A stretch of 64,000 nt of DNA, taken from Escherichia coli. Its GTDB lineage: Bacteria > Pseudomonadota > Gammaproteobacteria > Enterobacterales > Enterobacteriaceae. Positions 5,842 to 52,491 of this stretch are shown here, in pieces; position 1 is the first letter of the stretch, and each line of letters begins with the position of its first letter. A program made the position numbers and the translations under genes. The notes below the pieces were generated by a model. That model did no database searches, was not told the DNA's origin, and was given only the letters and a program-made list of their open reading frames with translations. The stretch lies in NCBI RefSeq assembly GCF_044647545.1, contig NZ_CP172818.1; one strand, 5' to 3'.

Positions 5842-5868
5842 ATCCCGGCCTGGTGCCGGGATTTTTTT
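5842..5868 (+). terminator. Rho-independent terminator of ybhL
   Basis: cccggc-ctggt-gccggg hairpin followed by a T7 run. Confidence 0.8.
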
Positions 5869-6028: not shown

Positions 6029-6742
6029 ATGGAATCATTCTCACAAAATAGCAATAAATTAGATTTTCAGCACGAAGCCAGGATATTAAACGGCATATGG
6101 CTCATTACCGCTTTGGGTTTGGTGGCAACCGCAGGGCTGGCCTGGGGCGCTAAGTATCTCGAAATTACGGCAACAAAATATGATTCACCGCAAATGTATA
6201 TTGCTATAGGATTATTATTACTTTGTATGTATGGCTTAAGTAAGGATATCAACAAGATAAATGCCGCCATCGCAGGCGTAATATATCTGTTTTTAATCTC
6301 TTTGGTGGCGATTGTCGTTGCGAGTTTAGCGCCTGTATCTGCCATTATCGTCGTGTTCAGCACTGCGGGATCGATGTTTTTAATCAGTATGCTGGCAGGT
6401 CTATTGTTTAAATTTGATCCTGGTTCTCACCGTTTTATCATTATGATGACGTTGGCAGGGTTGGCCCTGGTAATCATCGTGAATGCCACATTAATGAGTG
6501 AACGACCCATTTGGGTAATAAGTTGCTTAATGATTGTCTTATGGTCAGGCATTATCTCGCATGGACGAAATAAGCTCCTTGAATTGACAGGAAAAAGCCA
6601 TAGTGAAGAATTATGGAGTCCGGTTCGTTGTGCTTTTATAGGTGCATTAACACTCTATTACTATTTTATCGGCTTCTTTGGGATTCTTGCCGCTATAGCT
6701 ATAACGCTTGTCTGGCAAAGGCATACGCGGTTTTTTCATTAG
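6029..6742 (+). CDS. ybhM: BAX-inhibitor-1-like inner membrane protein
   Basis: 237 aa hydrophobic ORF. Confidence 0.85.
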   Translation: MESFSQNSNKLDFQHEARILNGIWLITALGLVATAGLAWGAKYLEITATKYDSPQMYIAIGLLLLCMYGLSKDINKINAAIAGVIYLFLISLVAIVVASLAPVSAIIVVFSTAGSMFLISMLAGLLFKFDPGSHRFIIMMTLAGLALVIIVNATLMSERPIWVISCLMIVLWSGIISHGRNKLLELTGKSHSEELWSPVRCAFIGALTLYYYFIGFFGILAAIAITLVWQRHTRFFH

Positions 6743-17474: not shown

Positions 17475-17621
<147 letters not shown>

Positions 17622-33404: not shown

Positions 33405-34081
<677 letters not shown>

Positions 34082-40959: not shown

Positions 40960-42552
40960 GTGTTAGTTTCCAGTAACGTCACCATGCAGTTCGGCAGTAA
41001 GCCGTTGTTTGAAAACATTTCCGTCAAGTTTGGCGGCGGCAACCGTTACGGCCTGATTGGCGCGAACGGTAGTGGTAAATCCACCTTTATGAAGATCCTC
41101 GGCGGCGACTTAGAGCCGACGCTGGGTAACGTTTCCCTCGATCCCAACGAGCGCATTGGTAAGCTGCGTCAGGATCAGTTTGCCTTTGAAGAGTTCACTG
41201 TGCTGGATACGGTGATCATGGGGCATAAAGAATTATGGGAAGTGAAGCAGGAGCGCGACCGCATCTATGCTTTGCCGGAAATGAGTGAGGAAGACGGCTA
41301 TAAAGTGGCCGATCTGGAAGTGAAATACGGCGAAATGGACGGTTACTCTGCGGAAGCTCGCGCCGGTGAACTGTTGCTTGGCGTGGGAATTCCAGTGGAA
41401 CAGCACTACGGCCCGATGAGTGAAGTTGCTCCTGGCTGGAAGCTGCGTGTGCTGCTGGCGCAGGCGCTGTTTGCTGATCCGGACATTCTCCTGCTCGACG
41501 AACCGACCAACAACCTCGACATCGACACCATTCGTTGGCTGGAACAGGTGCTGAACGAGCGTGACAGCACCATGATCATCATCTCGCACGACCGTCACTT
41601 CCTTAACATGGTTTGTACCCACATGGCGGATCTGGATTACGGCGAGCTGCGCGTTTATCCGGGCAACTACGATGAGTACATGACGGCGGCGACCCAGGCG
41701 CGTGAACGTCTGCTGGCTGATAACGCCAAGAAGAAGGCGCAGATTGCTGAGCTGCAATCTTTCGTTAGCCGCTTTAGCGCCAACGCCTCGAAATCTCGCC
41801 AGGCAACTTCGCGCGCGCGCCAGATTGATAAAATCAAACTGGAAGAGGTGAAAGCCTCCAGCCGTCAGAACCCGTTCATCCGTTTTGAACAGGATAAGAA
41901 ACTGTTCCGTAACGCGCTGGAAGTGGAAGGTCTGACCAAAGGGTTTGATAACGGTCCGCTGTTTAAAAATCTCAACCTGCTGCTGGAAGTCGGTGAAAAA
42001 CTGGCGGTACTGGGTACCAACGGCGTCGGTAAATCAACGCTGTTGAAAACGCTGGTGGGCGATCTGCAACCGGACAGCGGCACCGTAAAATGGTCTGAAA
42101 ACGCGCGCATTGGTTACTATGCTCAGGACCACGAATATGAGTTTGAAAATGATCTGACCGTGTTCGAATGGATGAGCCAGTGGAAGCAGGAAGGCGATGA
42201 CGAGCAGGCGGTACGCAGCATTCTCGGTCGTTTGCTGTTCAGCCAGGACGACATTAAAAAGCCAGCTAAAGTGCTTTCCGGTGGGGAAAAAGGGCGGATG
42301 CTGTTTGGTAAGTTAATGATGCAGAAGCCGAACATTCTGATCATGGACGAACCGACCAACCACCTGGATATGGAATCTATTGAGTCGCTGAACATGGCGC
42401 TGGAACTGTATCAGGGCACGCTGATCTTTGTTTCACACGACCGTGAGTTCGTAAGCTCCCTGGCGACCCGTATTCTGGAAATCACCCCGGAACGCGTGAT
42501 CGACTTTAGCGGTAATTACGAAGATTATCTGCGTAGTAAAGGGATCGAGTAA
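40960..42552 (+). CDS. ybiT: ABC-F family ATPase with two nucleotide-binding domains, no membrane domain
   Basis: 530 aa; Walker [10 protein letters not shown] and GTNGVGKST. Confidence 0.9.
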
Positions 42553-42637
42553 CTGTTGATCTCGTTTCCCAGATCCAGCAGCTGCTGAGGTTGTCATAAA
42601 ACAGGCCGAAGCTAAACGTCATTGCGGCGGGTGATGG

Positions 42638-43205
42638 CTAATGGAATGTGTTGTACAGCGGGTCAGTACTCACGGCGTTGTAGCCCATCGCGTCGAGGTT
42701 ACGCATCTCGTAACGTTTACCGTTGCGTTGCAGGTCGCCGGCTTTATCTCCGAGGCCATAAAAGCGTTCATCTTTACGACGGCTCTGATAGTGCGCCACA
42801 CCGTCACCGTGGGCATTCAGCAGATAAGCGCTGGTCGGTCGGTCATTCACTAACGGCAGCCATTTCGTCTTCGTTGTTACTATAGTGCCACTCCAGCCAC
42901 AGCGGCTGGTGAACGGTGGACCAGTGACTCGGTGGCGATAACCACGGCGTTGTTGTGCTGGTTCAGGTTCATGCGGGCAGGCCAGCCGCTGGACATTTTG
43001 CCGGCCGCGCCCTTCCCGATGGCACATCCTGCTGGAGCAATGCTCCAGGTGCGATCCAGCGCCAGCTCGCCTTTGCGTTTTAACAGCACGCGGAACAGAA
43101 TTCCAGCACGTACAGACGCAATACGCCCGCCATCGACCAGCAGTTCAACGTGGTGGGCAGACTGTTTGAGGTCCAGTTTTTCAGCGTTTCGACGTTGCAC
43201 ATCAC
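42638..43205 (-). pseudogene. Glycoside hydrolase family 31-like N-terminal fragment, frameshifted and 3'-truncated
   Basis: Two consecutive frames: ...HHVELLVDGGRIASVRAGILFRV...NQHNNAVVIATESL then ...RFYGLGDKAGDLQRNGKRYEMRNLDAMGYNAVSTDPLY-stop; same motif spacing as YicI ([23 protein letters not shown]); about 190 aa retained of an expected 700+. Confidence 0.55.
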
Positions 43206-43207
43206 TC

Positions 43208-44445
43208 TCAGGCGCGTTTTGCGCGACGTTCAGCAATAAAGGTGACCAGGAAGAAAGCGCCAATCAGGTCAAAGAAGCCCATGGCGATAAACAGGGCTTA
43301 AAGCCGATTTTGTCAGCAGTAACCCCGATAATCAGGGAGAAACAGGAAACTTGCTATCGACGCGGCAGAACCGCGCATGCCGTTACAGTGGCCATCTGAC
43401 CTTTGTCGAGGATTCCACTACTAATGCGCTAAGCATGCAGGAGATGATCTGGTCAACCGAAGCCGCCTATGGAAGATAAGGACGATGGCGATATGGGTTA
43501 TCCAGAAAGGCCATCACCGCCAGCGAAACCATCAGGAATGCGCCACTGACCGATCTATGCGCAATGGAGTTCACACTGACTCAGCCCAAACAGGCGGGTG
43601 TAAAGTTTGGTCAGATAGCCGCTGGCAATACTGCCAAGATCAGCGGCGAAGGAACGGCAACCAGGCGAAAGAGTGCGATCTGCTTCAGGTCGATGCCATA
43701 GGCATCTGGACAGGTATAGCGGAACCCAGAAACTCATCACCGCCCACGCCGGTTCTGCCATAAAGGCTGGGATAGTGATACCGTAAAAGCGTTTATTTTT
43801 GCCCACGGTTTTCAGTGCGGTCAGAAAGGGTAACTTGACCGGGGAGCTTCGTTATCCTGGCGGAGCAACCAGCTTGGCTTCGCTGAAGGTCAGGATGCTT
43901 ATCCGGGTTGCGATAAAACCCACCACAGCACCACCCACAGCATCGCCAGGATGCCAGTGGCATAAATGCGCCCTGCCAGCGAATGAAGCGTGGGCAAAAT
44001 AGATAATCGGTGGGGCCAGCATGGCACCGATGGAGTCTACGTCTGCCCAGCGGCGATCGGGCGTTGCGATTTTGGAAACCATTCACCTCATAGTTTTGGG
44101 GTTTGCCGGGGTGGCCGCGGCTTCCGCACCGCCCGATAAAGAAGCGCAACAGCGCCAGATGTACCCAGTTTCCCGCCCCCGCATGCATCAGACAGGCCAG
44201 CGCCCACAGCCCCTGTGCAGATCAGAAGCCCAGTTTGAGGCCAATGACGTCAATGAGCCACCGCATAACGGTTGAAATAGGGTATAGGCGAGTTGGAAAG
44301 CACCTACAATCCAGGAATATTGTTTTGTGCAATCCCCAGGCTGCTTTTCAACTCGGCGTACACCCAGCGAATTACGTGTGATGTAGTTGACAGTAACACC
44401 GAGCAAAAAAAGGACCAGCATCCACCAACGCAGATTTTTGAACAC
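43208..44445 (-). pseudogene. ExuT-like (anion:cation symporter family MFS) sugar-acid transporter, multiply frameshifted
   Basis: Fragments in at least four frames align in order along ExuT: N-terminus MFKNLRWWMLVLFLLGVTVNYITRN...KQYSWIVGAFQLAYTLFQP, then WRCCGWCCGGFYRNPDKHPDL, then KNKRFYGITIPAFMAEPAWAVMSFWVPLYL, then C-terminus IGVTADKIGFKP...FIAMGFFDLIGAFFLVTFIAERRAKRA. Confidence 0.7.
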
Positions 44446-44779
44446 CGGCGTGGTTTACTGGCAGTCATATCAATCGATACCCACTGATATGCACTCCACA
44501 GAATGGTATAGGGGGGCGGCAACGTCAGACGGAGTTGTCACACCACTTTTAACCTTTTGATAAATAAAGTCTTTATTGTCTGTTTTTCCATTGTTCTTGT
44601 ACTGGAAGTTGTTGTCACATTTTTACAGTAAGAGACACTAAAAGCGAAAAAGAAAGCGGGTTTTGTGCACGTTTTTCCATGCGGCCCATACATTACTGAA
44701 ATGGATTTAATGCCAGACAGAATGGGCTTTTTTTGCTCATGAAAATTCTGTCATTTCCGAATTAGAGGACATCAGAAAT

Positions 44780-45830
44780 CGGCAAAGAGCTTAAATTGCC
44801 GATATCGCCGCACGTACCGGATTATCGCCGATACGGTTTCGCGGGTGCTGCTGGCAAAGCGAATACCAGTGCACGCGCTCGCGAACAGGCGCTGGCCTGC
44901 GCGTGAGTTGGGCGCGATGGATGGCATGGCAGCAGGTCATGTTGCTGAATACAACTCATCATTTTGCGCCGCAACGCGCGTTTGACCAACGATCTGATAT
45001 CTTTTATTACCTGGTGTGATCCAGCATCAGCAAAGCGTTATCGCCCGCATGAAGTGCGGCTGCGTTACTGCGTGTTAAGGTAGTTCTACAGCTGATCCCT
45101 GGCGTGATCTGGCGGCATGAATGAAGCAGATACGCAGGCGGCGATCCTGCTGGGGATCGACGATCCGCACATCCATGATCTGGCCGCCGATCGCTAAGCC
45201 TTGCGCTGATCGACTGCTGGTGATGAACGAATGCGCCTCCCGACGATTGCGCCGGACCATCGGTTAATCGGCGTGTCTGCCGCCCGCTATCTGTTTGAAA
45301 TGGGTCACCGGGAGGTGATGAACGTTATGTGCCTGCGCTCGGCCACACTATGGAGCAGCGGTTTGCAGGGATCAAAGAATCATGGCGTCAGCATAATCTG
45401 GCCTTTCACCATGACCGTCATTTGCTGAATATCAGCAGTTTTCTCAGCGCTAAAGAAGCGGAAGAAGGTCGGAGCGCGGCCTGATGCCGCCAATGGCAAT
45501 ACGTTGCCGACGGCGTTTCTGGTCGGCGGGGATTTTTATGGCGGCGGGAACGGTAAATGCGCTACATCGTCGTGGTCTGCGCGTACCACAGGATGTCTCG
45601 GTGATGAGTATCGATGGTCTTCAATCTTGCGGCAATCGAGGATGTTCCCGACGGCTGTGACGTGCCACGCGATCAGCTAAGGGTTAAGTGGTGCAAATGT
45701 TGCAACAGCGGCTGATTCGCCGGATGTCTGCGGTGGGCTCGCTGCTGCTGCACGGACGATTAGCGGTGCGGACGCGCGGCGGTTGCCCAGGAAAAGGGAA
45801 CACCGCCGTGGAACGGGAAGGGCTGTACGA
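44780..45830 (+). pseudogene. LacI-family transcriptional regulator, multiply frameshifted
   Basis: N-terminal helix-turn-helix spread over three frames (IADIAARTGLSP / TVSRVL / GKANTSARAREQALACA); sugar-binding-domain fragments PDHRLIGVSAARYLFEMGHREV and ALHRRGLRVPQDVSVMSIDG; boundaries approximate. Confidence 0.65.
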
Positions 45831-45833
45831 CAA

Positions 45834-47102
45834 TCATTCCATTCCCAGCGCTCGCTTACCGTGAATGTTGAGGTCGGCAAGCGTAAAGCGTCCTTCCCAG
45901 TTTGTTTCATAGTCCTCGCGCGGGAAGTCGCCCGGCGATGCGCCTTTTTCCAGTGCGGCCTTCACCTTGTGCGCGTAGGCAAGATTTTTCTCGCACATCG
46001 GTGCCGCAGGAATGTACATCACGTTGCCCCAACCCTGTTGATTTTCAACGGGGGCAACGGAATGGATGACGTCGCAGTGCCACCAGACGGAGTCTCCGGC
46101 TTCGAGTTGTGGAATGCTGGTTAATGCCTCAATCAACAGTGGATGCCATTGCTCTGATACCGGCAACACTCTTCCGGGCGCTACGCCGCACAGTTCATCC
46201 TCCGGCACATCATCAAGCAGCGGACGTAACAGCACGTACGCCATGGCTTCAGGAATGGGCACGACGTGCAGCAGTCCCTGACCAGGCAGCATATCAGAGA
46301 GCGCTGTCCAGCCCTGGAATGTCCGAAACACGGAACATTTGGTGGTGTTGTCCACCGTGTACTCTTCAACTTCTGTACGATGTGCCGCATGCCAGGGATC
46401 ATATTGCGCCAGATTGCCATTAAAGACGTTGGCGAAAACGCGCTGATACGCTGGAAGCAGCCAGCGTTCCAGTGCCCCGGAGTCGGTATGCGCTCCGAGA
46501 CCTTTGGAGGCCGTTCCGGGCGGACGGCGGCGGATACGGTCAGGGTAGATGACGCTCACATCCGGGTTAAACCATTGCTTTCCATCACTTTCAAATGTCC
46601 ACAGACGATTGAGAAACGACTGCGCATTCGCCATTTCTTCACTCTGGCGGGCCTGCATTTGCGCCTGCGACCAGTAGATGGGGTAAATCTCGGGACGTGA
46701 AGCGCTGAGCGTCCCGAAGAAATTATCGCCGGGGCCTTTGTAGACCTCATCAAAGCGGTTGCGGTCCAGATAGTCCAGCATCGACTGATCCCAGCCTAGC
46801 GCTTGTTCGCGGGGGAAATGGCCTTTTATCACCGCACAACCGCGACGTTTAATCTGTTCGCGTTGCTCTGCAGTAACATGACCTGCTTTGATATCGGCAT
46901 AAGACAGCACCGGCCAGACTGCATCGCCCTGTGCTTTGAGTGCGTTGATTTCAGCCACTCGCGTGGCAATGTCATCGCTTAGCTGATTAAAGATCTGCTG
47001 GACGTCGCCAAGCTGCGCCCGCAGCGCGTGCTTCATCTGACGGATAGCTGCTTTGTGATCGGCAGGCAATGTGTTGCTGGTAAAAGTAGAAGCCATAACC
47101 AC
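45834..47102 (-). CDS. ybiU: DUF1479 family protein
   Basis: 422 aa intact ORF. Confidence 0.85.
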   Translation of the reverse strand: MVMASTFTSNTLPADHKAAIRQMKHALRAQLGDVQQIFNQLSDDIATRVAEINALKAQGDAVWPVLSYADIKAGHVTAEQREQIKRRGCAVIKGHFPREQALGWDQSMLDYLDRNRFDEVYKGPGDNFFGTLSASRPEIYPIYWSQAQMQARQSEEMANAQSFLNRLWTFESDGKQWFNPDVSVIYPDRIRRRPPGTASKGLGAHTDSGALERWLLPAYQRVFANVFNGNLAQYDPWHAAHRTEVEEYTVDNTTKCSVFRTFQGWTALSDMLPGQGLLHVVPIPEAMAYVLLRPLLDDVPEDELCGVAPGRVLPVSEQWHPLLIEALTSIPQLEAGDSVWWHCDVIHSVAPVENQQGWGNVMYIPAAPMCEKNLAYAHKVKAALEKGASPGDFPREDYETNWEGRFTLADLNIHGKRALGME

Positions 47103-52339: not shown

Positions 52340-52491
52340 CCGGACGTTCTGCATCCTCATCAATTGCTGATAACGTTGTGGAGTGCACCAAGCTTCCGCG
52401 CCTGAAATTCGCCCGAACTAGGCAGATAAGGTTACGCCGATTGGGTCTGAGAAAATTATCTGCCGCGACTTATCAGGCCTGGGGCTGGCAG

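Follow-up and report, generated by a model that had tools for sequence, protein, structure and literature searches.

A Truncated GH31 Glycosidase Gene at the ybiT-ybiU Locus of an Escherichia coli Assembly and Its Probable Technical Origin

The ybiT-ybiU island and its intact counterparts

The window, that is, the whole stretch of 64,000 nucleotides that was analysed, belongs to the E. coli chromosome and runs from uvrB through ybiT and ybiU to dgcI. Between ybiT and ybiU it carries the remains of a three-gene island (Table 1), a known and annotated accessory locus for sugar utilisation that is intact in 576 of 5,426 complete E. coli genomes (~11%). In its intact form, the island comprises the genes for a GH31 alpha-glycosidase and an MFS transporter, with a LacI-family regulator gene divergent from both. 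The islands of FDAARGOS_497 and WWCOL-236 resemble that of the window in locus, gene order and allele type, with flanks near-identical over ~60 kb, and the locus of strain WWCOL-236 (hereafter L001) was used for the reference coordinates of a relative. The window differs from both in lacking 1,887 bp and in carrying 228 private small changes in the remainder of the island, so that none of the three genes is readable. K-12-type genomes have just a REP-containing spacer of ~240 bp at this position.

Table 1. Features of the ybiT-ybiU region, a second noisy patch in the window, and the intact island genes of relatives
Feature	Position	Strand	Size	Remarks
ybiT (ABC-F ATPase), intact	40960-42552	+	530 aa	Protein identical to the K-12 YbiT form
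Junction of the gap	42548/42549		1,887 bp missing	L001 1750-3636 missing
GH31 glycosidase remnant	42549-43193	-	codons 1-221	N-terminal beta-sandwich domain only, by alignment to the 787-aa ortholog
ORF within the GH31 remnant	42638-43027	-	129 aa	Contains ERFYGLGDKAGDLQRNGKRYEMRNLDAMGYNAVSTDPLY; PF13802 match, E=3.3e-17
Longest difference-free stretch of the patch	42651-42862	-	212 bp	Carries the motif block of the original prediction
MFS transporter remnant	43208-44488	-		31 frameshifting indels, 44 substitutions
Divergent intergenic region	44489-44777			0.075 events per bp, as noisy as the genes
LacI-family regulator remnant	44778-45864	+		40 frameshifting indels, 42 substitutions
ybiU (DUF1479)	45834-47096	-	420 aa	WP_400165218.1; private C-terminus ...ALGME
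Second private noisy patch	52395-52460			~27 deletions, nearly all of G or C, and 1 substitution; best match 88.5% in 5,426 genomes
Intact GH31 glycosidase	relatives' island		787 aa	FDAARGOS_497 and WWCOL-236, WP_000854254.1
Intact MFS transporter	relatives' island		433 aa	FDAARGOS_497, WP_000077533.1; WWCOL-236, WP_063814900.1
Intact LacI-family regulator	relatives' island		367 aa	FDAARGOS_497, WP_001571153.1; WWCOL-236, WP_413395474.1

The intact GH31 ortholog contains PF13802 (residues 27-213), the PF01055 TIM barrel (263-587) and PF21365 (596-681), together with DUF5110. Its nearest solved structures are ER alpha-glucosidase II (5F0E, E=1e-79) and a Flavobacterium GH31 enzyme (6JR6, E=7e-79). 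The alpha-xylosidase YicI (PDB 1XSI, 2F2H) is also a GH31 enzyme and has the N-terminal-domain motif region in common with the remnant, but it is more distant than 5F0E and 6JR6, aligning to the intact ortholog over residues 147-685 with E=7e-36, and its subfamily is not the closest one to the island GH31. Scores of the ortholog against the NCBIfam MalA, alpha-xylosidase and YihQ models fall far under each cutoff. For the MFS transporter, the top NCBIfam model is the D-galactonate transporter subfamily, with a score below the cutoff.

The two neighbours of the island take different ends in island-bearing strains, where ybiT closes with GAC GGT TAA (531 aa, ...KGIDG), that is, in DG rather than E, and where the LacI-family gene (L001 5908-7011) converges with ybiU (L001 6978-8243) such that their 3' ends overlap by 34 bp. 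Gain or loss of the island thus remodels the last codons of both neighbours. In the divergent region between the transporter and the regulator of the intact island (L001 5710-5806), CGTTTTTCCAT is present in two direct copies ~85 bp apart; a search of this region for a LacI-type palindromic operator found no inverted repeat. Across E. coli, the ybiT-ybiU locus is a structural-variation hotspot; B2-type strains such as Nissle are without ybiU, with ybiT followed by ybiV, and some strains carry an IS621 insertion in the ybiT-ybiU spacer.

The ybiT junction and the glycosidase remnant

Up to 42548, the ybiT DNA of the window matches L001 with 100% identity, after which the window resumes at L001 3637, with GGGATCGA on the left of the junction and GTAACTGTTGATCTCG on its right (sequence across the ybiT/GH31 junction, GGGATCGAGTAACTGTTGATC). 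Of the 1,887 bp that the relative has in between, the GH31 gene accounts for 1,701 bp (codons 222-787 and the stop), and the rest comprises the last 7 bp of ybiT and a 179-bp spacer. Through the join, GAG TAA becomes the last codon and stop of ybiT, and the protein ends in ...KGIE as in K-12. When the junction was sought in complete E. coli genomes, no other genome was found to have it; the top matches were K-12-type genomes, whose alignment is confined to ybiT and a further 22 nt of weak similarity (15/22). The patchy similarity between the K-12 sequence following ybiT and the GH31 interior was considered as a cause of the join and is too weak to conclude from. Microhomology, for which the original prediction had proposed an alignment against intact orthologs, did not appear at the junction (0 bp shared; left ...ATCGA/CGGT, right ...GTGTG/GTAG), a result weakened by the noise at this site.

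The original prediction, made from the sequence alone, had described a GH31-type glycosidase reduced to its N-terminal ~190 codons and ending 85 bp from the ybiT stop, the catalytic barrel having been removed by a deletion of about 1.5-2 kb. Assignment to GH31 is confirmed by the PF13802 match of the 129-aa ORF. The barrel is indeed missing at both protein and DNA level, since tblastn and blastn of the window gave no trace of the ortholog past residue ~227, and so none of PF01055 with its catalytic residues; a search for the downstream part elsewhere in the window likewise found nothing. The C-terminal beta-sandwich PF21365 is also absent from the window and falls inside the missing 1,887 bp, a measured gap that lies within the estimated size. 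The extent of the remnant, by comparison, was understated, as the DNA retains 221 codons, broken across frames rather than forming a single ORF. The 85 bp that had appeared to separate the fragment from ybiT (42553-42637) correspond to GH31 codons ~193-221, which a 4-bp deletion and a 1-bp insertion have shifted out of frame, and GH31 homology reaches the ybiT stop codon. The junction falls slightly outside the interval 42553-42640 proposed for the endpoint, and the remnant is joined to the coding end of ybiT rather than to its 3' flank, the whole 179-bp 3' spacer being gone. Damage to the remnant amounts to 14 frameshifting indels and 28 substitutions, with the ATG start codon destroyed. Its 129-aa ORF forms a singleton cluster among ~15 billion proteins.

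Small changes across the island and anomalies elsewhere in the window

Compared with the allele of the relatives, the part of the island that remains (42549-45843, 3.3 kb) has 127 substitutions, 37 insertions and 64 small deletions, for a total difference of 7.95% (mismatches 3.7%, deleted bases 3.0%, inserted bases 1.2%; 101 bases deleted versus 42 inserted). About 85 frameshifts are distributed over the three genes, and event density ranges from 0.059 to 0.077 per bp, alike in genes and intergenic DNA. Substitutions at codon positions 1, 2 and 3 number 46, 23 and 45, respectively. The noise is over-dispersed (variance/mean 2.1, with the 212-bp clean stretch), which requires partial polishing or variable read quality. 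Among 1-bp deletions, 31% lie in runs of three or more bases versus 17% in the background, while 15 of 33 1-bp insertions extend a run. At sites that distinguish the two natural island alleles, the window is of the FDAARGOS/L001 type at 60 of 72, with ~300 further columns private to it, and identity over the patch does not exceed 93% in any of the 5,426 complete E. coli genomes. Introduction of an old decayed allele by recombination was rejected, because the patch consists of the FDAARGOS-type allele with private changes added and is confined to one assembly.

The noise ends at ~45843, where homology to island-less genomes resumes, and the edges of the patch coincide with the island-specific segment as defined against those genomes. 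At both island junctions the base is that of K-12-type genomes, with GAGTAA next to ybiT and TCCATTCCC next to ybiU. The last noisy cluster, at 45834-45843, alters the C-terminus of YbiU, which ends in ...ALGIDS in relatives and in ...ALGMDV in K-12. The altered protein occurs on one NCBI contig of 4,499,902 bp, and the variant is probably an artefact despite having its own RefSeq accession. With the ORF, the YbiU variant and the patch all private, the allele exists solely in one public record.

Substitutions in the patch show a pronounced strand asymmetry. On the plus strand, T<->C changes (60) outnumber A<->G changes (16; binomial p=4e-7), and the ratio is unchanged by gene strand, being 35:9 in the minus-strand genes and 20:6 in the plus-strand regulator (Fisher p=1). 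Because the ratio is equal across oppositely oriented genes, the bias is a property of one physical strand and does not stem from transcription. A transcription-coupled or deaminase-type bias was rejected on the grounds that the asymmetry does not flip between genes and that the indels would be left unexplained. In the minus-strand reading, A<->G changes amount to 30 per type, or 4.7 times the mean transversion type (6.4), and C<->T changes to 8 per type, or 1.25 times that mean. In raw nanopore reads, taken in read orientation, A-G substitutions are 3-5 times as frequent as transversions and C-T substitutions only a bit commoner than transversions; deletions are the commonest indel and rank first among errors, and the global error is ~6% in HAC mode and ~8% in FAST mode (Delahaye & Nicolas 2021, PMC8486125). 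The patch resembles this profile in its total of ~8%, its excess of deleted over inserted bases and its A<->G and C<->T pattern, whereas it departs from it in that mismatches (3.7%) slightly exceed deleted bases (3.0%) and in that the noise is patchy. Both departures suggest partial polishing.

Outside the island, the window differs from strains such as FDAARGOS_497 by ~8 small events over ~60 kb; relative to FDAARGOS_497 itself, 1 SNP and 5 small deletions are found in the 42.5 kb upstream and one REP patch in the 18 kb downstream. Structural differences between the FDAARGOS type and a K-12-type genome were mapped across the whole window, yielding five large ones (~945, ~22798, ~30735, the ybiT-ybiU island and a REP insertion), and private anomalies occur at all five. 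At ~945, ~22798 and ~30735, three sites at which 75-150 bp are additional or replaced in K-12-type genomes, private over-deletions of 2, 1 and 3 bp are found near 942, 22798 and 30735, a few bases from the junctions and not in homopolymers; from the positions, the chance of three such small over-deletions coinciding with junctions is estimated at ~3e-8. The fifth site is the second noisy patch, which sits in a REP insertion of ~100 bp between fsa and moeB that K-12-type genomes are without, and whose noise stops exactly where K-12 homology resumes. Unpolished repeats were rejected as a general cause, as another REP element, at 17591-17620, is free of noise; a search with one variant of a REP consensus pattern gave 0 matches. 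Away from the five structural sites, only three events differ from FDAARGOS_497 (5861, 6043 and 33827). Among the upstream 1-3-bp indel differences from K-12, 9 of 10 follow the sample and not K-12, indicating that the reference influenced structure and not base calls. The source contig, at 4.50 Mb, is ~0.4-0.8 Mb shorter than the 4.9-5.3 Mb chromosomes of close relatives.

Origin of the truncated allele

The truncation of the GH31 gene is most probably an artefact of an assembly that was poorly polished or reference-guided, with raw long-read fill, and not a biological deletion. This reading follows from the location of the remnant within a 3.3-kb stretch whose errors match those of uncorrected nanopore reads. 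The right-hand 3.3 kb of the island would then be represented by essentially uncorrected nanopore-type long-read sequence, in an assembly or polishing step guided by a genome of K-12-like structure without the island. Under such guidance, sequence common to sample and guide would have been corrected to near-perfection, to the true bases of the strain, deletions relative to the guide would have been placed a few bases off, and insertions relative to the guide would have been filled with raw long-read sequence. The 3.3 kb may represent the overhang of a single minus-strand read with its start within the GH31 gene, butt-joined to the flank on the ybiT side, in which case the apparent deletion would be island sequence beyond the reach of that read, and the ~85 frameshifts in the three genes would be read errors and not mutations. 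We infer this pipeline from the pattern of anomalies described above, and an intact island in the isolate itself from its relatives: at least 11 of the 12 nearest genomes listed (~5 differing bases in a 22.5-kb flank) have the island intact, so that the isolate most likely possesses a working regulator, transporter and GH31 set.

Against an artefact stand the over-dispersed noise, the slight excess of mismatches over deleted bases, the upstream indels that follow the sample, the clean REP element at 17591-17620 and the new ybiT stop, which is exactly in frame, as a real deletion under selection would also explain. The in-frame stop is the best argument for a real and recent loss, in this isolate, of the 1,887 bp (the catalytic portion of GH31 together with the spacer and the final 7 bp of ybiT) in which only the small changes would be technical, since the junction supplies GAG TAA and leaves a full-length YbiT equal to the K-12 protein. 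The missing DNA is moreover nowhere else in the window, and accessory islands are commonly degraded by deletion. Nevertheless, such a deletion is unlikely, as its left breakpoint coincides to the base with the left boundary of the island relative to island-less genomes, which would be unexpected for a random endpoint, the junction is without microhomology and private among complete genomes, and the noise on one strand runs from the junction to the other island boundary, as it would for a butt-joined read overhang. The deletion proposed in the original prediction therefore stands as a description of the deposited sequence with respect to family, barrel loss and size, whereas its biological reality is not well supported in view of the noise patch, the confinement to one record and the intact island in relatives.

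That all changes are real, either as an old decaying pseudogene cluster or through extreme localised hypermutation beside the deletion, is very improbable. The restriction of the changes to dispensable DNA, stopping at the ends of ybiT and ybiU, and the lack of a third-codon-position excess, as neutral decay predicts, would agree with it. A natural pseudogene, however, should show decay commensurate with its flanks, and here a patch differing by 7.95%, with 3.7% substitutions and 101 indels in 3.3 kb, stands beside 1 SNP and a few 1-3-bp indels in ~60 kb of flank; a natural allele should be shared by related isolates, and this one is the FDAARGOS-type allele plus private changes in a single assembly. 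The 4:1 single-strand transition bias, independent of gene orientation, is unlike natural decay, the remaining intergenic and REP DNA of the window is pristine, and private anomalies are found at every other K-12-type structural junction as well. To our knowledge, no bacterial process yields ~8% change including 1-2-bp insertions. More improbable still is the specific scenario in which the 228 changes arose when a kataegis-like burst of error-prone repair synthesis rewrote the dispensable 3.3-kb island, at ~8% per base and on one strand, beside a fresh deletion; if true, this burst in a natural isolate of E. coli would far exceed in density anything described in bacteria.

With an assembly artefact as the preferred explanation, the locus carries little biological weight, being a known accessory locus whose truncated and frameshifted state is most likely technical. 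At every site where the strain departs in structure from a K-12-like genome, the record appears to hold patches of raw read sequence or imprecisely placed junctions, so that pseudogenes, truncations and apparent deletions called in its accessory regions should not be taken as evidence of gene decay. Equal care is due with the altered C-terminus of YbiU (WP_400165218.1) and perhaps with a frameshift in dps. The latter is one of the three events away from the structural sites: at 33827, a T6 to T5 change splits dps (~33405-33908, minus strand) into two ORFs, setting the N-terminal 27 residues apart from the rest. T6 is kept in K-12 and all close relatives, and the change probably reflects an assembly error in the homopolymer and not a true knockout. 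The event at 6043 is a single private A/G SNP, and that at 5861, in the ybhL-ybhM spacer, is a T8 to T7 change in which the window has the K-12 state and not that of its close relatives.
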